Assembly (NCBI GenBank): GCA_030616085.1 | Contig: JAUWYA010000001.1 | Span: 74,692 to 134,377 of the forward strand | Length of the DNA stretch: 59,686 bases | Source of the DNA: Candidatus Nealsonbacteria bacterium | Lineage (GTDB): Bacteria; Patescibacteriota; Minisyncoccia; Minisyncoccales; GWA2-38-27 | Reading direction: 5' to 3' | Shown: positions 5,706-29,652 of the stretch, one piece after another | How positions within the stretch are numbered: the first letter of the stretch is position 1 | How the letters are laid out: each line of letters opens with the position of its first letter | The notes under the pieces: generated by a model | What the model saw: only the letters and a program-made list of their open reading frames with translations | Told to the model about the DNA's origin: nothing | The model's database searches: none | Program-made: the position numbers and the translations under genes

Positions 5706-6491
5706 ATGAACGTACTTGAATACAAAATGGTGGATATACTTAAAGTGTTAAAGAATGAGTATGGTGTTTTTGAGATTAAAGCTGAATTTGAGGCCGAAGG
5801 GAGCCGGATGGAGGAAATGATGCGCCTTAAAGATGTCACCACTTTTGTGGGATTACCGATTATATTAAAGACCGGTGGCGTAGAGGCGGTCACAGATGTA
5901 TATAACGCACTGTCAATAGGCGTGAAAGGACTTATTGCTCCCATGGTTGAAACTCCGTTTGCCTTGTCAAAATTCCTGGCTCTCATAAAAAATATGATTG
6001 CCGAGGATAATAGGAAAGATATTGAATTCGCTTTTAATTTGGAAACTATAACAGCTTTTCAAAACATAGATAAGATGTTTGAACTACCCGATGTTCCAAT
6101 GTTAACCGGAGTAACTGTCGGAAGGGTTGACTTAACTGGGTCTATGGGCTTAGGAAGGGAAGCCATTAATACATCCAGCGAAGTGTACAGCATTTGCGAA
6201 AAGGTTATGTCAAAAGCTAAAAAAAGAGGGCTTAAGACAGGTTTGGGCGGAGGTATTTCAAAAGAGGCCATACCGATTATAACAAAATTGACTAAAAGCA
6301 AATTGCTTGATAAGTTTGAAACGCGCAAGGTCGTATTTCCGGCTGCTTCTTGTAAGTATGGAAACGCCGCGATATTAAAGGCGGTTGAATTTGAGCTTTT
6401 ATGGCTTAAGAGCAAGCGAAGGTATTACTCGCGTGTCAAAGTTGAGGATGAAAATAGAATAACAATGCTTGAGAAAAGACTTAAGCAATAA
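5706..6491 (+). CDS. HpcH/HpaI aldolase / citrate-lyase-beta family protein
   Basis: The LIAPMVETPFA motif and TIM-barrel-length protein (261 aa) are typical of the class II pyruvate aldolase / CitE-like superfamily. Confidence 0.6.
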   Translation: MNVLEYKMVDILKVLKNEYGVFEIKAEFEAEGSRMEEMMRLKDVTTFVGLPIILKTGGVEAVTDVYNALSIGVKGLIAPMVETPFALSKFLALIKNMIAEDNRKDIEFAFNLETITAFQNIDKMFELPDVPMLTGVTVGRVDLTGSMGLGREAINTSSEVYSICEKVMSKAKKRGLKTGLGGGISKEAIPIITKLTKSKLLDKFETRKVVFPAASCKYGNAAILKAVEFELLWLKSKRRYYSRVKVEDENRITMLEKRLKQ

Positions 6492-6496
6492 TTTTA

Positions 6497-6528
6497 AAAC
6501 CCCGAGATACAAAAGTACCTCGGGGTTT
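6497..6528 (+). terminator. stem-loop after the aldolase gene (weak intrinsic-terminator candidate)
   Basis: AAACCCCGAGATAC-AAAA-GTACCTCGGGGTTT, 13 of 14 positions paired. The T-run is only 3 nt and lies inside the stem. Confidence 0.4.
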
Positions 6529-6540
6529 CAATTCTATATT

Positions 6541-7695
6541 ATGAATAATAATTGCCATTTATGTAACAATAAATTATTTCCTGATCCAGTTCTACAATTA
6601 AAGGGGATGCCAAAAGCTGCTCAATATTATCCAGAAAAAAATGAGTTTGCAGAAGATATTGGTATACTTTTAACTATCTGGCAATGTTCAAGCTGTGGTT
6701 TGGTCCAGCATACTATGAGACCAGTGGAGTATTTTAAAGAGGTAATTACCGCTGCTTCATTATCAGAGAAATCCAGGTTGTCCAGATTGAATCAAATAAA
6801 AGAGTTTGTTAACAGGTTTGGATTACATGGCAAAAAGGTTTTAGATATTGGCAGCAATAAGGGTGATATGATAGATGTTTTGGAGGAGGCGGGTTTAATA
6901 GCGACAGGAATTGAGGCTTCACAAAAATCAGTAGAAATAGGAAAATCTTTAGGAAGAAAAATGATTAAAGGCTATATCGGGGATATAGATGAAATAGAAG
7001 GCGGTTTATTTGATGCATTTATTTCTTTAAATTACATTGAACATTTGCCTGAACCAGGTCGTATTATCAGAAACATATATAAAAATACTTTTGCTAATTC
7101 AATGGGATTTGTAACAGTTCCTAATTTAGAGTATTTATTAAAAACAAAATGTTTCTATGAATTTGTCGTTGACCACATTTCATATTTTACCAAAAAAACA
7201 CTGACATACGCTTTTGAGGCAAATGGTTTTGATGTGTTAGAATGTCAAACCATTAATGAAGAAAACGATATTGCAGCAATAGTAAGAAAGAAAGAGGCCC
7301 TAGATATTTCTGGACATTTCAATGAAGTTGAAGAACTTATTAAAAATTTACAACAAATTGTAGCTGACTACAAATCAAAGAATAAGAAAGTGGCGGTTTG
7401 GGGAGCAGGCCACAGAACATTGGCATTGTTAGCTTTAAGCAAAGCGAATAATATTGAATATATAATTGATTCCGCGAAGTTCAAGCAAGGAAAATACGCC
7501 CCTATCTTGCATTTAAATATAGTGTCTCCAGAGCATTTGAAGAAAAAAAAGGTTGATTTAGTAATAGTTATGGTGCCCGGACTTTATCCTAGCGAAGTGT
7601 TAAAAACGCTGGCACAGATGAATGTCGGCGTGGAAGTCGCAACGCTTTGCGAAAACAAAATTGAGTTTATCCCGTTAGAAAACTCTGCCCTTTAG
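6541..7695 (+). CDS. NDP-hexose C-methyltransferase-like protein (Zn-ribbon + class I SAM MTase + C-terminal C-methyltransferase domain; TylCIII-like)
   Basis: N-terminal CHLCNN...CSSCGLVQH zinc ribbon, SAM motif VLDIGSNKGD, and a C-terminal VAVWGAGHRTLALL Rossmann-like domain. Start set at MNNNCHLC (6541), downstream of the hairpin. Confidence 0.7.
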   Translation: MNNNCHLCNNKLFPDPVLQLKGMPKAAQYYPEKNEFAEDIGILLTIWQCSSCGLVQHTMRPVEYFKEVITAASLSEKSRLSRLNQIKEFVNRFGLHGKKVLDIGSNKGDMIDVLEEAGLIATGIEASQKSVEIGKSLGRKMIKGYIGDIDEIEGGLFDAFISLNYIEHLPEPGRIIRNIYKNTFANSMGFVTVPNLEYLLKTKCFYEFVVDHISYFTKKTLTYAFEANGFDVLECQTINEENDIAAIVRKKEALDISGHFNEVEELIKNLQQIVADYKSKNKKVAVWGAGHRTLALLALSKANNIEYIIDSAKFKQGKYAPILHLNIVSPEHLKKKKVDLVIVMVPGLYPSEVLKTLAQMNVGVEVATLCENKIEFIPLENSAL

Positions 7696-7733
7696 GGCGG
7701 TTGGGTTGAAAACCCCGCCTTTTCTAACGGGAT
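7669..7733. repeat. palindromic element, copy 1 (arms ATCCCGTTAGAAAA / TTTTCTAACGGGAT)
   Basis: Perfect 14-bp inverted arms at 7669-7682 and 7720-7733 enclose a 37-nt spacer that contains its own hairpin. The left arm encodes the last codons (IPLEN) of the C-methyltransferase. Confidence 0.8.
7694..7724 (+). terminator. intrinsic-terminator-like hairpin after the C-methyltransferase gene
   Basis: GGCGG..GGTT-GAA-AACC.CCGCC followed by TTTTC. It lies inside the spacer of palindromic element copy 1. Confidence 0.45.
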
Positions 7734-7754
7734 TTATTAAAAATTAATAATTCA

Positions 7755-7983
7755 GTCCGGTAGGATCCGAACTAGCATCAATTTAGCGGAGCGAATTTTA
7801 TTCAGATTCAAGGCGCGAGGAGTGAAGTGTGCCTTTAGGCACACGAGCGACGAGCAACAAAGAAACTGTATAAAATTCGCCCGCCCGCAGGGAAGGAAAG
7901 AATAGGTCAATTTCCTCGTCGCGCCTCGAACCTGACCTATTCTTTCGCTTCTAAAGTTGATGATAGTTTGGATCCTACCGGGC
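7755..7983. other. GC-rich, highly self-complementary intergenic element (candidate structured ncRNA or non-autonomous mobile element)
   Basis: My hand count gives 112 G+C in 229 nt (about 49%), against an AT-rich background. A 16-bp closing helix pairs 7757-7772 CCGGTAGGATCCGAAC with 7966-7981 GTTTGGATCCTACCGG, with one G:T position. Inner helices are 7791-7800/7871-7880 (10 bp), 7827-7833/7838-7844 (7 bp) and 7896-7909/7933-7946 (14 bp). Confidence 0.6.
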
Positions 7984-7990
7984 ACAAAAA

Positions 7991-21507: not shown

Positions 21508-22254
21508 ATGAATTACTTAGAAAAATTTTCACTTTTAAATAAAATTGCTATAGTTACTGGCGCTGCACAAGGTAATGGTTTTGCTATTGCGAAAGGATTG
21601 TTAGGCGCGGGAGCAACAGTTTATTTTATTGATATTTTAAAACAGGAAATTTCAGACCCAAAAGCAAAATATATTATAGCAGATGTTATTAAAAAAGAAG
21701 ATCTGGAAAGGGTAGTTAACCAGGTATATCAAGAACAAGGCAGAATAGATATTTTAGTTAATAATGCTGGCATTACTATATCAGAGCCAAGTGAATCTTA
21801 CAGCCAGGAGAGTTGGGATAAAACATACAGAGTAAATTTAAAAGCAGTTTTTCAACTAAGCCAAATGGTGGCTAAACATATGATAGGACAAAAATCCGGA
21901 GTAATTATCAATATTACAAGTCTGGGTGCCGAACAAGGATTTCCTAATAATCCTGCTTATGTTGCTTTTAAAGGGGGATTGAAACAACTTAGTAAAGCAT
22001 TGGCTAATGATTGGGCAAAATATAACATTAGAGTTAATAATTTAATGCCGGGCTACATTAAAACAAATATGACCCAAAAGAGCTGGAACGATCCGGTTTT
22101 AAGAACAAAGCGACAAAAGAAAACTATGCTGGGAAGATGGGGAGAACCGGATGATTTGGTAGGCCCTGCTATATTTCTTGCTTCAGATGCTTCCAGTTAT
22201 ATCACCGGCCATGATTTATATGTAGATGGTGGTTGGTTAGCAAAAGGTCTTTAA
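21508..22254 (+). CDS. classical SDR oxidoreductase (FabG-like)
   Basis: TGAAQGNGFAI, NNAG and YVAFKGG (YxxxK). Confidence 0.8.
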   Translation: MNYLEKFSLLNKIAIVTGAAQGNGFAIAKGLLGAGATVYFIDILKQEISDPKAKYIIADVIKKEDLERVVNQVYQEQGRIDILVNNAGITISEPSESYSQESWDKTYRVNLKAVFQLSQMVAKHMIGQKSGVIINITSLGAEQGFPNNPAYVAFKGGLKQLSKALANDWAKYNIRVNNLMPGYIKTNMTQKSWNDPVLRTKRQKKTMLGRWGEPDDLVGPAIFLASDASSYITGHDLYVDGGWLAKGL

Positions 22255-22284
22255 TATAAAAATAAATTAATAAAAAATATGGAA

Positions 22285-22364
22285 TCCCGTTAGAAATTCT
22301 GTATTAACAGGTTTTTAATCGGGGTATCATATCCAAATAGAATTTATGAAAATTTCTAACGGGG
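22285..22364. repeat. palindromic element, copy 2 (arms TCCCGTTAGAAATT / AATTTCTAACGGGG)
   Basis: 13 perfect bp plus one T:G position. Arms at 22285-22298 and 22351-22364 with a 52-nt spacer. The right arm overlaps codons 2-7 of the annotated NeuB-like ORF. Confidence 0.75.
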
Positions 22365-23245
22365 TGGAACAAAAAAGTAAAAAAATAGTAAAAATTGGAA
22401 ATAAATTAATAGGCGATGAGCAACCAACTTTTATAACCGCAGAAATTGGAATTAATCATAATGGAGATATTGATATTGCCAAGAAATTAATAGATATGGC
22501 GGTTTTTGCCGGTTGTGATGCGGTCAAATTTCAGAAAAGGACTATTGAACTTGTCTATACTCCTGAAGAATTAGCCAGACCAAGAGAAAATCCTTTTGGA
22601 CCGACTAACGGTGACTTGAAAAAAGGACTGGAATTTGGCGAAAAAGAATATCAAGAGATAGATAGATATTGTAAAGAGAAAGGTATAATCTGGTTTGCTT
22701 CTCCCTGGGATATGAAAAGTGTTGACTTCTTGGAAAAATTTGATGTTCCTTGTTATAAAATAGCCTCTGCTTGTTTAACAGATGATGAATTAGTGAAACA
22801 GATTAAATCTAAAGGCAAGCCAATTATTCTATCTACTGGTATGAGCACTATAGAACAAATTAAGCATGTGGTTAATGTGTTGGGTGAAGAAAATTTAATT
22901 TTGCTTCATTGTACCTCAACCTATCCTTCAAAACTTGAGGAATTAAATTTGAATGTTGTTCCTTGGCTAAGAAAAACCTTTAATTACCCGATTGGTTATA
23001 GTGGTCACGGAATCGGTGTTGTTGGATCTGTGATAGCTGTAACCTTGGGAGCTTGTGTTGTGGAAAGGCATATTACTTTAGATAGAGCAATGTGGGGAAG
23101 CGATCAGGCAGCAAGTTTAGAACCTAATGGTTTGAATAGGGCAGTAAGGGATATTAGAAATCTGCCCAAGTGTTTAGGAGACGGCCAAAAGAGAGTTTAT
23201 GAAAGCGAAAAACCAATACTTGAGAAATTAAGAAAAGTTAAATAA
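22346..23245 (+). CDS. NeuB-family sialic-acid-type synthase (PEP-dependent ulosonic acid synthase)
   Basis: PTFITAEIGINHNGDIDIAKKLIDMA..GCDAVKFQ is the NeuB/PseI/LegI N-terminal signature. At 299 aa it is shorter than typical NeuB, with a reduced SAF-like tail. The start is uncertain: ATG at 22346 or in-frame GTG at 22364. Confidence 0.75.
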   Translation: MKISNGVEQKSKKIVKIGNKLIGDEQPTFITAEIGINHNGDIDIAKKLIDMAVFAGCDAVKFQKRTIELVYTPEELARPRENPFGPTNGDLKKGLEFGEKEYQEIDRYCKEKGIIWFASPWDMKSVDFLEKFDVPCYKIASACLTDDELVKQIKSKGKPIILSTGMSTIEQIKHVVNVLGEENLILLHCTSTYPSKLEELNLNVVPWLRKTFNYPIGYSGHGIGVVGSVIAVTLGACVVERHITLDRAMWGSDQAASLEPNGLNRAVRDIRNLPKCLGDGQKRVYESEKPILEKLRKVK

Positions 23246-26830: not shown

Positions 26831-28141
26831 ATGAAAAATTTATCTTATTATAACAAACTTGGCTTTGAAGACGCATTTTCTTGGAAACAAAAGGATTCTC
26901 CTGGATTTTTTTTGCTTGATGGCGAGTTTAAATCAGTAGAAAGTTTGCAGCTGAGCATATTACAAGGTGCCAAAAAAATAATGCAAGGATATAATAAATA
27001 CAAATTCGCTCTAAATTTTTATGACAGGTTTTTTCAGAAATTATGTTTTAAAAATAATAAAAAAGGCAAGAAGATTTTGTTTCACAGCATGAGATACTCC
27101 GACCTTATTTTGGAAAGTAAAAAACATTATCCTTTAGGATTGATGATAGAGGGAAAGAAAGATAGGTGGTTTTCATTGAAGAATTTTACTGGATATCTAA
27201 ATACGAGCGATTTATATCAATATGTTTATTATTATATGAAAGAAAAAAACATAGATTATCTTTATCAGTTAGTTGAAAAACTGGAAGAAAAATTAGAAGT
27301 TTTGAGACCAAATTATGTAGTATTATGGAGTAATGGCTTTCCAATTGAAAAAGCTATTGTATTGGTATGCAAAAAATTTGGCATTTCTACCTTATTAATT
27401 CAACACGGAGCATTTCAATCAAGCACATTTTCGTCTATGGGTAGCGAAAAAATGGCTGTTGATTATCTTTTAGTCTGGGGGCAATATTTTAAAGATTTAT
27501 ATGTCAAAGAAAATATAAGAAAGCCAGAAGAAATTTATATTTTAGGATATCCTTATAAAATTTGTAAACCTAAATTAAAAAAGAAGAAAAAATATACTGT
27601 TTGTTATTTAGGCCATCCTTTTGAAAAAGATAATAAAGAACTACTAAATCTGAAATTAAAAACCTTAACTGAATTAAATAAAATATGCGAAAAATTGAAC
27701 ATTGAATTTTTTTGTCGTCTTCATCCTCGAGACAACAGAAATCTTTTAAAAAGCAAGGCTCCAGACATAAGATTTGCTCCGAAAAATGAAAGATTATTTG
27801 ATACTATTGCTAAAGGAGATATTTTTATTTCTTTTAGTTCTACTTCTCTAATAGAAGCAGCAATGAGAGGTAAGATTAGTTTGCAATTAATGAATTATCC
27901 TTTGCATAGAGATAATCTTGAAAAATTAGGAGCTTGCACTAGAAGTTTTCAGAACATTGAACAATTAAGTGAATATCTTCAAAAAGTAATTAGAGATTCT
28001 CACTTGAAAGAAAATAAATTTGAGTTTAATAATTATTATATTGAAACTAGATATAATCCGGGCCAACGATTTGCAGAGATATTAAACCAAATTGAGAATA
28101 AACAAACTAAGGAGCTTAGCTCCTTGAACACTTTTTTATGA
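26831..28141 (+). CDS. hypothetical protein, putative glycosyl/ulosonyl transferase (paralog of 54159-55760)
   Basis: Shares ...VCKKFGISTLLIQHGAF...DYLLVWGQYFKDLY with the 54159 protein (...ACKLNKIKTYGFQHGQF...DKLFVWNKYWKKVL). I cannot name the family. Confidence 0.4.
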   Translation: MKNLSYYNKLGFEDAFSWKQKDSPGFFLLDGEFKSVESLQLSILQGAKKIMQGYNKYKFALNFYDRFFQKLCFKNNKKGKKILFHSMRYSDLILESKKHYPLGLMIEGKKDRWFSLKNFTGYLNTSDLYQYVYYYMKEKNIDYLYQLVEKLEEKLEVLRPNYVVLWSNGFPIEKAIVLVCKKFGISTLLIQHGAFQSSTFSSMGSEKMAVDYLLVWGQYFKDLYVKENIRKPEEIYILGYPYKICKPKLKKKKKYTVCYLGHPFEKDNKELLNLKLKTLTELNKICEKLNIEFFCRLHPRDNRNLLKSKAPDIRFAPKNERLFDTIAKGDIFISFSSTSLIEAAMRGKISLQLMNYPLHRDNLEKLGACTRSFQNIEQLSEYLQKVIRDSHLKENKFEFNNYYIETRYNPGQRFAEILNQIENKQTKELSSLNTFL

Positions 28142-29652
28142 AATGGGTTTTTTTAATAAATAACGCGCCGTTTTTAATGGAAGTTCTGGGAGAGTTTGCT
28201 TGTCAGATAGAGGAAGAAGGGGATGAGTGCATCGGGATTATAAGCGGCAAGATTGCCGAGTATAAAAAAAAGAAGTATTTTCCGAATAAGATGAGATTTA
28301 TTTCTAAAATTGATTGGTGTATTAGAAACTTTCAGAGAAATAAAAAAGAATTTGGCAATTTATCGTGGAGAAAAGTCTTTTTTGTCTTTGACAGGCTTAA
28401 ACGATCGGACTTTAGTTATGATAATTCATTAGACATGGTTTCGCAGGTTTATCAATTTTTTGAGTTTATTTTTAGAAAAGAAAGGCCTGATGTGATAATC
28501 AGTGAACCGTGCTCGGGTTTATTTAATGGGATTGCTTATTATTTCTGCCAAATGAATAAAGTGCCTTATTTTGGTTTAACGAGCTCTAGATTTAGAAATA
28601 GGATAGATGTTTATGATTTGGAAACTACTTGTTCAGAATATAGAAAAACTTTTAGAGAAATAAACCCCGTTAGAGATTCTAGGGACAGAGAAAAGATAGA
28701 GAAAGGAGGTATCTCTAACGGGGTAAATAATAATGATATTTCTGACAAAGAAAAGCAGTTTGCAAAGAATTTTATTGAAAAATTTATATCTCATAAAGAG
28801 CTGCCTTCTTATATGGAGTGCCAGAAAATTTATTTTACCCAGTTTGGTTTTATTAAACATTATCTGAGAAGAATAAAAGAACTCGGCCGTCCTTATTTTC
28901 AATATTTTTTAAATAGGAAACATTTTAAAAAGTTTGATTACGAGAGCGAAAATGTTTTCAAAAACGGTTTTCGGGCGCCTTTTAAGGCTGAAAGACGAAA
29001 GTTTAGAATTTTGTCCCAAAAGAATATTTTTAGCCGTTTAAGTAACCTAGATAACAATCAGAAATTTTTTCTGTTTCCTTTACAGCTTCAGCCAGAGGCC
29101 TCAACTTCTGTTTTAGCCACTTATTTTTGCGACCAGTTAAACACTATAAAAAATACAGCATTTGCCTTGCCTCTTCTCTATAAATTATATATAAAAGAGC
29201 ATCCTTCCGCTGTTGGCACTAAACCGAGAAGTTTCTATAAAGAGTTAGAAAAACTTCCTAATGTGGTTTTAATTTCTGCCCATGAAAATGTGGAAAATCT
29301 TATTAAAAAGTCATCAGGAGTTATTACTTTAACCAACACTATTGGAATAGAAGCAGCCCTTGTTGGCAAACCAGCATATGTTCTAGGAAATGTATTTTAT
29401 TCTTATCATCCTTTATGTAGAGAAGTGAAAAGTTTTGAAGAACTGAAAAATAGAATAGAGATGGATTTAATTAATAAGCCAAATACAGAAAACTTAGAAG
29501 ACATTAATTGTCGTTTTATTACTTCTTATTTCAGAAATACAATCCCCGGCATTATTGATGAAGCCGTTCTTAAAAATGACACAAATAATTATCAGTTTAT
29601 GTATAAAAATATAAAGAGATTGTATCAGGAGATAAACAAAAATGCAAAATAA
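28138..29652 (+). CDS. capsule-polysaccharide-biosynthesis (KpsC/KpsS, Capsule_synth-like) family protein
   Basis: FFLFPLQLQPEASTSV resembles the LPLQV..DSQ motif of KpsS/KpsC-type beta-Kdo transferases, and the length and context fit. The assignment is from motif memory only. Confidence 0.5.
   Translation: MKWVFLINNAPFLMEVLGEFACQIEEEGDECIGIISGKIAEYKKKKYFPNKMRFISKIDWCIRNFQRNKKEFGNLSWRKVFFVFDRLKRSDFSYDNSLDMVSQVYQFFEFIFRKERPDVIISEPCSGLFNGIAYYFCQMNKVPYFGLTSSRFRNRIDVYDLETTCSEYRKTFREINPVRDSRDREKIEKGGISNGVNNNDISDKEKQFAKNFIEKFISHKELPSYMECQKIYFTQFGFIKHYLRRIKELGRPYFQYFLNRKHFKKFDYESENVFKNGFRAPFKAERRKFRILSQKNIFSRLSNLDNNQKFFLFPLQLQPEASTSVLATYFCDQLNTIKNTAFALPLLYKLYIKEHPSAVGTKPRSFYKELEKLPNVVLISAHENVENLIKKSSGVITLTNTIGIEAALVGKPAYVLGNVFYSYHPLCREVKSFEELKNRIEMDLINKPNTENLEDINCRFITSYFRNTIPGIIDEAVLKNDTNNYQFMYKNIKRLYQEINKNAK
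28664..28724. repeat. palindromic element, copy 3, embedded in-frame in a CDS (arms ACCCCGTTAGAGAT / ATCTCTAACGGGGT)
   Basis: Perfect 14-bp arms at 28664-28677 and 28711-28724 with a 33-nt spacer. The segment translates as ...NPVRDSRDREKIEKGGISNGV... inside ORF 28138-29652. Confidence 0.75.

Follow-up and report, generated by a model that had tools for sequence, protein, structure and literature searches.

Bacterial MITEs are 70-300 bp long and end in terminal inverted repeats (TIRs) of 15-30 bp (PMC3733652). Rickettsia palindromic elements (RPEs) are palindromic selfish DNA, found in frame in functional genes and translated as an extra peptide, and REP and REPIN palindromes have as their defining feature a tetranucleotide tag, GTAG (or CGTC), at one end (PMC3733652). 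The piggyBac elements have a 4-bp TTAA target-site duplication (TSD) and CCC-type TIR tips (CCCTT/CCCTC motifs), with IS1380 as their prokaryotic outgroup (PMC10813416).

We examined a 59,686-nucleotide stretch of a Candidatus Nealsonbacteria genome (contig JAUWYA010000001.1, positions 74,692 to 134,377), here called the window, in which three palindromic loci share one core. The elements at these loci resemble the Correia/CREE elements of Neisseria and MITEAba12 of Acinetobacter in being short, non-coding, bounded by TIRs, flanked by TSDs, multicopy, and polymorphic for presence or absence, and, like bacterial MITEs, they can add expression signals at the borders of genes or break existing ones. 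They are much smaller, however, with the shortest only 29 bp; their interiors are not conserved within a genome, the inner bases of their two TIRs change in concert, and the ends, instead of being limited to one genus or family, occur in at least ten phyla, with no known parent IS. Like RPEs, they are palindromic, in frame, and translated, but RPEs, which occur only in Rickettsia, are longer and have CGTC at their ends. None of this holds for the present family, whose members have clear 4-bp TSDs and target start codons also. With REPs and REPINs they share abundant hairpin palindromes, occasionally intragenic, whose stem pairing matters, but they are untagged, with TSDs and symmetric arms, and cross phylum boundaries, and no RAYT was found nearby in the loci examined.

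Three hairpins and their insertion sites in the window

The arm positions and the spacers of 37, 52, and 33 nt described in an earlier note on this DNA were reproduced exactly. Copy 1 has 14-nt arms with 100% complementarity (7669-7682 and 7720-7733, 37 nt between them). The arms of copy 2 (22285-22298 and 22351-22364) are 52 nt apart and have T:G as their outermost pair, and those of copy 3 (28664-28677 and 28711-28724) are 33 nt apart. Exact matches to the 9-mer CCCGTTAGA number six on the two strands of the window, and all six fall into the three inverted pairs with none left over. As the note had it, the 9-bp core is constant and the family is far from chance. The three single-mismatch matches elsewhere in the window are unpaired and at chance level, and among perfect inverted repeats of at least 10 bp containing TTAGA, no others share the core of the three hairpins. 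The interiors of the three copies have no sequence in common, again as the note had it, and the inner stem bases change together in both arms, both in these copies and in 154 members of the wider family. The description of a repeat family able to form hairpins, its core constant and its inner stem covarying, stands. Copies 1 (MFE -34.9, z -5.9) and 3 (z -5.6) fold better than all of 200 shuffles. Copy 2 folds more weakly (z -3.7, with 2 of 200 shuffles equally good), and in its MFE fold the left arm pairs with a decayed internal right arm, not with the outer one.

All three copies touch coding sequence, as had been reported. Copy 1 proper is 63 nt, T-CCCGTTAGA-AAA ... TTT-TCTAACGGG-A (7670-7732), with an interior of two small hairpins that gives a Y shape. 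It is flanked by TTTA at 7666-7669 and by the same tetranucleotide at 7733-7736, in the register that TSDs have throughout the family. A methyltransferase ORF (6469-7695, Methyltransf_14/23) terminates within the element (...IEFIPLENSAL*), and the C-terminus of the methyltransferase is replaced by copy 1. Related strains (runs X1 and X3) lack the copy, with 7668/7670 joined to 7986.

Copy 3 proper is 59 nt, C-CCCGTTAGA-GAT ... ATC-TCTAACGGG-G (28665-28723), between TAAA duplications at 28661-28664 and 28724-28727; the joint runs from 28660 to 28724, with 4 ambiguous bases. Counting one TSD copy, the in-frame addition to a PF05159 capsule-biosynthesis protein (ORF 28138-29652) is 63 nt, or 21 amino acids (NPVRDSRDREKIEKGGISNGV). 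The insertion is missing from 25 of 25 aligned homologues, the closest of which is 77% identical, and these read FREI|NNND. Contigs with the empty site, recovered in runs X2 and X4 from populations 90-95% identical, skip exactly 63 nt and leave 4 ambiguous bases at the joint. Presence/absence polymorphism at orthologous loci, which the note had proposed as a check, is thus found. Just inside the right arm lies a Shine-Dalgarno-like AAAGGAGGT (28703-28711, forward strand). This motif marks a subfamily, CCCGTTAGA(ga)TACCTCCTT when read on the other strand, and turns up again in three phage contigs (L127, L128, and L130) and at Omnitrophota locus L069; in L127 and L069 the element bearing it stands directly 5' of an ATG. 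In copy 3, where it is internal to an ORF, it is probably without function.

Copy 2 is inserted on the start codon of a NeuB-family gene. The presumed original start, ATG GAA at 22279-22284 on the forward strand, is identified from the sequence, the ORF list, and the NeuB Pfam match; the frame from this ATG meets a TAG (22291-22293) in the left arm of the element. TGGAA at 22280-22284 is the left copy of a 5-bp duplication, and because of that duplication we infer that the ATG at 22279 is the ancestral start. The element proper, 80 nt long, is T-CCCGTTAGA-AATT ... AATT-TCTAACGGG-G (22285-22364), and its interior holds the decayed right arm TTTTTAATCGGGG (about 22312-22324) and, at 22346, an ATG in frame. 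It abuts the present start codon: G22364 and the right TGGAA (22365-22369) rebuild a start (GTG GAA CAA...) from which the NeuB ORF is read in frame. A search for an empty allele of the copy 2 site recovered none.

Anatomy, target duplications, and distribution of the family

Members take the form Y-CCCGTTAGA-NNN...NNN-TCTAACGGG-R, and the arm pattern may also be given as YCCCGTTAGANNN. The 13-bp TIRs comprise Y, CCCGTTAGA, and three variable, mutually complementary bases, and they enclose an interior of 4 to about 90 nt whose sequence is free to vary. Elements span 29-110 bp and have no coding capacity. Terminal bases are C..G in 94 elements and T..A in 42. Stem positions 10-12, inside the core, are paired in 91, 86, and 71% of 154 members, compared with 42, 51, and 36% in shuffles; pairing at position 13 is at chance level. 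Perfectly complementary inner triplets come in 15 distinct versions. In a GC-rich subfamily a branched interior is kept across different CPR classes, with some compensatory pairs. At least eight loci show nested arms, two left arms followed by two right arms, and some interiors contain a nested copy of the same element. Depth in run X3 was 84-95 over the arms and 6 over the interior.

Of 147 elements, 70 are flanked by a direct repeat of 4 bp that is perfect and always in the same register, against a mean of 10.6 and a maximum of 23 when the pairing is shuffled. Targets mostly read TNNA, and almost all are a single mismatch away from TTAA. TTAA itself accounts for none of 62 perfect TNNA duplications, and palindromic tetramers as a class were never observed as duplications where 14.4 were expected (P=8e-8). 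Duplications of 5 bp occur at copy 2 in the window and at L017, L041, and L105. A perfect 4-bp duplication is absent from 85 of 158 elements, about 20-25 of which have inverted-symmetric flanks (TTYAC|..|GTRAA) and no direct repeat in any register. One locus (L004) has an element at GAGCGACGAG|CGAGCAAC, where its counterpart in the window reads an uninterrupted GAGCGACGAGCAAC. The family thus shows three features of MITEs: terminal inverted repeats, a TSD of fixed length that is single in empty sites, and small, non-coding, multicopy units.

The note had suggested a pattern search for copies elsewhere, and such a scan turned up more than 120 additional loci in at least ten phyla, including Patescibacteria, Omnitrophota, Planctomycetota, Desulfobacterota, Cloacimonadota, Nitrospirota, and Bacteroidota. 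One archaeal MAG (Methanosarcinales) and ten viral contigs, some of them phage, are also represented. Copies can be dense, with three in the 60-kb window and up to three, with related interiors, in 2.7 kb of locus L034. The sole match in a cultured organism, a Paenibacillus (L095), has no paired termini, stem extension, or TSD and looks like an expected chance match. A blastn search of a plasmid collection with the minimal element returned nothing meaningful, and exact-string and topical searches of the literature found no description of the element family.

Elements within genes and at start codons

Thirty-nine elements lie in long ORFs, their hosts being unrelated housekeeping genes such as those for PheT, RsmH, DnaE, and RpoC. 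The element length is divisible by three in 38 of these 39, compared with 38 of 103 outside ORFs. The three reading frames are used 32, 7, and 0 times, and the unused one is the frame that contains stops (TAG/TAA in the arms). Because lengths are so constrained and the stop frame is never used, in-gene elements must be viewed as translated rather than spliced. In-gene copies persist only if the frame is kept and the stop frame avoided, and they are predicted to be read as surface-friendly ..PVR..SNG.. or ..PLE..LTG.. peptides. A conserved protein motif (PVR...SNG) was considered and rejected, since the same DNA is found between genes, in two frames, and on both strands.

Start codons are a further setting. 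An ATG or GTG that opens an ORF of at least 80 codons adjoins 24 of 159 elements, six of which contain a Shine-Dalgarno sequence. Copies on ATGAA-type start codons persist because the duplication rebuilds the start codon. One subfamily brings its own Shine-Dalgarno sequence, and a AAGGAGGT-bearing subfamily precedes genes. For the annotation of MAGs, the element would account for gene-prediction artefacts of three kinds: extra loops of 15-25 amino acids, displaced start codons, and changed C-termini.

Nature of the elements and the search for a transposase

We consider it likely that the three hairpins belong to a MITE-like family of transposable elements that are very small, non-coding, and palindromic. 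Insertion duplicates 4 bp of target, occasionally 5, and the elements would be moved in trans by a transposase making 4-nt staggered cuts. That enzyme may, as a weak lead, belong to the piggyBac/IS1380 superfamily, to judge by the CCC-type ends and the 4-5-bp T..A duplications. The identical ends in many phyla would imply horizontal spread, of the element or of the enzyme, through communities of anoxic sediment and groundwater. The possibility raised earlier, that the arms are part of a larger known IS or MITE, holds in part: the arms do bound a MITE-like element as its TIRs, but that element is not among the known ones. Some observations sit poorly with the MITE account. A young MITE burst is rarely without a common interior, and the three window copies have none; the inner 3 bp covary, which would not be expected if a transposase bound the two double-stranded ends independently of each other; and it is unusual for a MITE family to keep one 13-bp end conserved between phyla and domains. 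The MITE account does not explain the stem covariation or the total lack of palindromic duplications.

A more far-reaching reading, which we think rather unlikely, treats the elements as minimal "hairpin transposons", an unrecognized prokaryotic system that spans phyla and domains. Its enzyme, possibly a DDE transposase of piggyBac-like type, would be widely transferred and would recognize the 13-bp stem by sequence in its outer 10 bp and by pairing in its inner 3 bp. Copies at the cognate palindromic target (TTAA-like) would remain excisable and vanish, and those at near-cognate sites would be trapped. Harmlessness would have evolved through two open, loop-friendly frames in both orientations and through rebuilding of start codons, with a Shine-Dalgarno sequence of its own in one subfamily.

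REP-like identity had been suggested in the earlier note, and a REP/REPIN-type palindrome would be made by a HUH (Y1) transposase (RAYT/TIRYT) reading a single-stranded hairpin. The fixed 13-bp stem, sequence-specific in its outer part and covarying in its inner part, would suit such a reader of structure plus sequence. HUH transposition (IS200/IS605), however, leaves no target duplication, and the elements have variable 4-bp duplications that are single in empty sites. Their arms read YCCCGTTAGA / TCTAACGGGR, with neither a GTAG nor a CGTC tag, and are symmetric, whereas REPs have a tagged head; one sequence recurs across phyla, whereas REP/RAYT pairs are lineage-specific. In favor of such an origin, intragenic REPs and in-frame RPEs are documented, and Planctomycetes (R. 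baltica) are rich in tyrosine transposases with flanking repeats (PMC3733652). The present elements are often intragenic, and in the loci examined no recurrent ORF of 90-260 amino acids, and no recurrent Y1 ORF, lies near them. We judge a REP/REPIN origin improbable. A functional structured RNA or regulatory hairpin, not itself mobile, is more doubtful still, whether as terminator, mRNA stabilizer, ribozyme, or portable ribosome-binding site. The stable folds of the elements (z -3.7 to -8), the stem covariation, the branched interior with some compensatory pairs that the GC-rich subfamily keeps in different CPR classes, and the subfamily with a Shine-Dalgarno sequence directly ahead of start codons are all as such a role would have them. 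But Rfam yielded no match at gathering score to elements in the window and 18 loci, only chance-level matches at E<=10, and the arms fall in no terminator call, which, with the in-frame copies in unrelated ORFs, tells against the terminator or RNA-stability element that the note had also offered. The interiors are unrelated between copies, a Shine-Dalgarno sequence is present in just 6 of 24 start-codon copies, and TSDs with empty sites mean insertion.

Two further accounts have very little in their favor. If the elements were intervening sequences, either new mini-introns or ribosomal bypass sites as in phage T4 gene 60, the direct repeats would be splice junctions or take-off and landing codons. 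A stable hairpin between direct repeats would fit, as would copy 2, where ATG GAA meets TAG in the arm and GAA recurs past the element. Removal from the message would, however, lift the constraint on length, yet 38 of 39 in-ORF copies are divisible by three and stop-free and lengths outside ORFs are random; where genes seemed disrupted, the element in fact sits at a gene boundary, immediately ahead of a start codon. This explanation is hardly credible. Least credible of all are integron attC recombination sites, despite the imperfect palindromes, the conserved core containing GTT/AAC, and the variable, sometimes branched center. The attC architecture is RYYYAAC...GTTRRRY on either strand, whereas the order here is GTTAGA...TCTAAC on both strands; the elements are intragenic and in frame, they have TSDs, and the window contains no cassette array or integrase.

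For the MITE-like family, a transposase or autonomous copy was sought in about 1 Mb of loci, and none was found. A search of the same loci for half-sites and long-range arm pairs found no long-range pair, and all-against-all clustering of ORFs of at least 200 amino acids and of 90-260 amino acids in the loci examined revealed no recurrent mobile-gene ORF. Viral contigs inspected for an autonomous partner had none. No IS1380-like or piggyBac-like gene linked to these ends (PF13701/PF13843-type DDE/DDD) was found in the loci, and tblastn of 42 IS1380-family proteins against them gave no match. A search for ISEcp1 homologues returned only relatives more than 83% identical, and a search of representatives returned diverse family members without genomic context; a cluster look-up brought up no taxa of relevance. 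The one other IS1380 member inspected, from Persicobacter, has no CC-type tip and no similar ends.

If the family is confirmed, few mobile DNA families of prokaryotes would be as small or as widespread, with a single 13-bp end linking CPR bacteria, Omnitrophota, Planctomycetota, sulfate reducers, an archaeal MAG, and some of their phages. The family would also serve to trace horizontal DNA exchange in the communities of anoxic sediment and groundwater, and it would be a natural example of a transposon shaped for harmlessness within genes. Stem covariation and the lack of palindromic duplications suggest an undescribed mechanism of recognition or excision, and the enzyme, if found, could yield a small, sequence-defined insertion tool.

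The elements resemble piggyBac/IS1380 members such as ISEcp1 in having a TSD of 4 bp (sometimes 5) that starts with T and ends with A and a TIR of about 13 bp; IS1380 target duplications are 4-5 bp. They differ from piggyBac in that the duplication is never TTAA and the tip is YCCC(G), with an extra Y. The ends are alike over a short stretch, and chance could account for this: the end of ISEcp1 (IS1380 family), CCTAGATTCTACGT, reads CCTAGA and the present end YCCCGTTAGA, each a run of C followed by TAGA.

Three hairpin elements and their insertion sites

The hairpin elements of the window (copy 1, 7669-7733; copy 2, 22285-22364; copy 3, 28664-28724) have arms in which the core CCCGTTAGA pairs with its reverse complement, and on re-reading, the earlier note proved correct on where the arms lie, how long they are and how far apart (spacers of 37, 52 and 33 nt). 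Exact CCCGTTAGA occurs six times in the window, counting both strands, and all six occurrences are arms of the three inverted pairs; three one-mismatch matches elsewhere are unpaired and at chance level. A window scan for perfect inverted repeats of at least 10 bp with TTAGA returned only the three family pairs and one unrelated AGTTAGAAAA pair. Because window G+C is 31.8%, the CCCG/CGGG arm ends are conspicuous. Compared with dinucleotide shuffles, copies 1 and 3 fold with z-scores of -5.9 and -5.6; copy 2 folds more weakly (z -3.7), and in its best fold the right arm that pairs is a decayed one in the interior.

Copy 3 lies in a 504-aa capsule-biosynthesis ORF (PF05159) whose database homologues are mostly 470-500 aa. 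All 25 aligned homologues, one of them 77% identical, read ...FREI|NNND... without insertion, and the window protein has 21 extra residues, NPVRDSRDREKIEKGGISNGV. In the DNA, ATAAAT becomes ATAAA-C[CCCG...CGGG]G-TAAAT, with the gain of a 59-nt element and a second TAAA. Assembled contigs from 90-95%-identical populations (groundwater and sediment metagenome) lack copy 3 and join 28660 to 28724, a joint that skips exactly 63 nt, with 4 bases ambiguous. Copy 1, flanked by TTTA/TTTA, provides the final residues and stop codon of a methyltransferase ORF and is missing from related strains in two runs. The presence/absence polymorphism at orthologous loci that the earlier note had proposed looking for was thus found for copies 1 and 3. 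A second filled/empty pair joins a Patescibacteria MAG (L004), which has an element at GAGCGACGAG|CGAGCAAC with CGAG duplicated, to the uninterrupted GAGCGACGAGCAAC at window 7845-7858.

Copy 2 is flanked by a 5-bp repeat, TGGAA/TGGAA. The presumed NeuB ATG GAA upstream of it now reads into the TAG of the left arm, the right-hand TGGAA yields GTG GAA CAA... in frame with NeuB, and an ATG within the element is likewise in frame. We infer from these flanks that copy 2 landed on the former NeuB start; an empty allele was looked for and none recovered. All three copies therefore touch coding sequence, as previously claimed: an ORF end, the NeuB start and an ORF interior.

The window (1-59686) is a single long polysaccharide/nonulosonic-acid biosynthesis cluster, nearly all co-directional, encoding NeuB, a radical SAM/SPASM enzyme, C-methyltransferases, short-chain dehydrogenases and capsule-synthesis proteins, with no tRNA. 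The nearest homologues are labelled Staskawiczbacteria/Patescibacteria, and its source run is a marine sediment metagenome. In a related population (run X3), the intergenic gap 5' of the NeuB gene carries another small palindrome, GTGTTAGACCGAGCTTCTAACAC, at window 22254-22260; it has the inner GTTAGA/TCTAAC of the hairpin family with a GTG/CAC tip, not CCC/GGG, and hints at sister families with other tips.

A widespread family with shared ends

A pattern scan of one genome per species, using CCCGTTAGA-N25-55-TCTAACGGG, found at least 120 loci. By our own arithmetic, about 270 random matches to this pattern are expected in 596 Gb of uniform composition. The locus count alone therefore proves nothing, and weight must rest on features that the pattern does not impose. 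The terminal bases are paired as C..G in 94 and as T..A in 42 of 147 elements. The three bases inside the core (arm positions 10-12) pair in 91, 86 and 71% of cases, against 42, 51 and 36% in shuffles, with 15 distinct complementary triplets, and pairing at the next arm position is at chance. The covariation of inner stem bases noted in the three window copies thus extends to the family. Direct repeats of 4 bp, perfect and always in the same register, flank 70 of the 147 (shuffled pairings: mean 10.6, maximum 23), and several loci have two or three clustered copies. The sole cultured-organism match among the loci listed, in Paenibacillus (L095), has no paired termini, stem extension, target-site duplication (TSD) or clustering, and illustrates within the data set what a chance match looks like.

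By record title, the family occurs in many classes of Patescibacteria, Omnitrophota, Desulfobacterota, Cloacimonadota, Nitrospirota, Nitrospinota, WOR-3, Planctomycetota (Pirellulales, Phycisphaerae, Sedimentisphaerales), Bacteroidota/Ignavibacteriota, one gammaproteobacterial MAG and one Methanosarcinales MAG with two good copies. Ten viral contigs carry copies; plasmids of cultured bacteria gave no meaningful match. Copies on different contigs of several MAGs argue against binning artefacts. For the 13-bp end to be conserved across phyla, the element or its enzyme must often have moved horizontally.

The elements sampled, a set biased by the gap allowed in the search, measure 29-110 bp. At their most minimal, copies consist of a palindrome around a 4-nt loop (e.g. 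L044), many interiors hold a second, often decayed, copy (as in copy 2), at least eight loci have nested arms (two left, then two right), and some interiors, including that of copy 1, form two small hairpins. One GC-rich subfamily, whose branched interior is conserved, occupies non-orthologous sites, dnaE included, in several CPR classes; there are thus subfamilies that share an interior and have spread, as copied elements would be expected to do. The unrelated spacers of the window copies, correctly noted earlier, represent three different subfamilies, and the copy 3 interior (TACCTCCTT, other strand) matches elements of three related phage contigs and an Omnitrophota MAG.

Elements within and beside genes

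Thirty-nine of 142 elements lie within ORFs, counted where the frame runs on without a stop for 40 codons or more to either side, in unrelated housekeeping genes. Core-to-core length is divisible by three in 38 of these 39, compared with 38 of the 103 others. The frame PVR...SNG is used 32 times, PLE...LTG 7 times, and the remaining frame, which puts TAG and TAA in the arms, never. This pattern marks purifying selection on insertions that are translated, as likewise for Rickettsia RPEs, and it argues strongly against removal from mRNA or ribosomal bypass. Cases in which excision apparently fused two long ORFs proved to be gene boundaries, with the element directly 5' of a start codon.

Elements abut the ATG or GTG of an ORF of at least 80 codons in 24 of 159 cases. 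Typical flanks are ATGAAT|...|ATGAAx, so that the TGAA duplication rebuilds the start codon. GGAG or GAGG lies just inside the right arm in 6 of the 24, compared with two in the control orientation. We attribute the start-codon and Shine-Dalgarno patterns to survivorship, which the element's own adaptation may have sharpened. In one subfamily a full Shine-Dalgarno motif, AAGGAGGT or GGGGAGGT, lies just inside one arm, in phage L127 (4734-4776, 9059-9116), Omnitrophota L069 (2497-2543, 6524-6588), loci L128 (2709-2758) and L130 (3740-3798), and the window (28703-28711). In L127 and L069 it lies 8-11 nt 5' of ATG, and the elements directly precede a start codon rebuilt by TGAA duplication; there the subfamily may act as a ribosome-binding site that moves with the element. 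L128 and L130 share the motif alone, since no start codon flanks them on the right.

Mobility, relationships and an adjoining structured region

The elements are non-coding, multicopy and polymorphic, with 13-bp inverted ends and a TNNA-type target duplicated over 4 bp (sometimes 5). A transposase acting in trans, and cutting with a 4-nt stagger, would mobilise them. The commonest TSDs, TTTA (18), TTCA (11-13, the higher figure with viral loci counted), TAAA (9), TTGA (7), TGAA (7) and TCAA (4), are each one mismatch from TTAA, and the tips are a C-run followed by TAGA. piggyBac duplicates TTAA and has CCCTT/CCCTC tips, with IS1380 as its prokaryotic relative (PMC10813416); the end of ISEcp1 (IS1380 family), read from plasmid pCTX-M3, is CCTAGATTCTACGT. 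Membership of the enzyme in the piggyBac/IS1380 superfamily is a weak lead; no transposase gene bounded by CCCGTTAGA arms was found in the loci searched or through IS1380-family protein searches. Separately, transposases with 83-90% identity to ISEcp1 (P0121-P0240, outside the window) occur in well over 100 distinct clusters from environmental metagenomes, including MAGs labelled Labilibaculum and ANME-2 archaeon; an ISEcp1-type element is itself, therefore, very widespread beyond Enterobacteriaceae.

The REP-like identity suggested earlier, whether REP or REPIN, is not supported, since the family lacks the GTAG/CGTC tag (PMC3733652), has TSDs, and no RAYT was seen in the loci examined. An attC site has the opposite box order, no Rfam family matches, and no description was found in the searchable literature. 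The family has the structural features of MITEs, save a known parent IS, and it behaves as MITEs and Rickettsia RPEs do. We file it as MITE-like; it stands out for how small it is, its covarying ends, its target pattern and its breadth across phyla. Four features go beyond what a simple MITE model explains: the cross-phylum conservation of the end, the covariation at arm positions 10-12, the lack of palindromic TSDs and the elements with no perfect duplication. The covariation implies either that a 13-bp stem is under selection, so that a hairpin or cruciform is important, or that the two arms evolve in concert. None of 62 perfect TNNA duplications is palindromic (TTAA, TATA, TCGA, TGCA), whereas 14.4 would be predicted by the tetranucleotide content of the loci themselves (P = 8e-8); either copies of this kind are excised again with high efficiency, or a junction that is palindromic throughout is unstable. 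Roughly half of the elements sampled have no perfect duplication; some of these have 5-bp repeats, some are nested, and approximately 20-25 show inverted symmetry in their flanks, TTYAC|...|GTRAA, without a repeat in any register.

Another inverted repeat in the window, TTAAAACCCCGAGATAC / GTACCTCGGGGTTTCAA (6494-6531; 17 nt, 4-nt loop, 88% complementary), lies at the extreme start of the methyltransferase ORF 6469-7695 and is unrelated to the CCCGTTAGA family. Adjoining copy 1 is a rod-like structured element of 235 nt (7753-7987) with a 30-bp closing stem (MFE -118 kcal/mol, z -11.5). Related strains lack it, too, at this site, and in three metagenomes its depth is 10-30x the local baseline. 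Relatives lie at L004 3045-3375 and L133-L143; eleven were full-length (about 290 nt), all in Patescibacteria. The relatives share covarying stems and long conserved blocks (ATCAATTTAGCGGAG, AGCGACGAGCAACGAAGAAG, CGCCCGCCCGAAGGGAAGC, GCTTCTAAAGTTGAT); in the window copy about 46 nt are missing. An Rfam scan gave no match even at E<=10. Two MAGs have two copies each, and the neighbours differ at every locus. The element is a candidate for an undescribed structured RNA or a mobile element with long terminal inverted repeats of CPR bacteria, and merits separate study.
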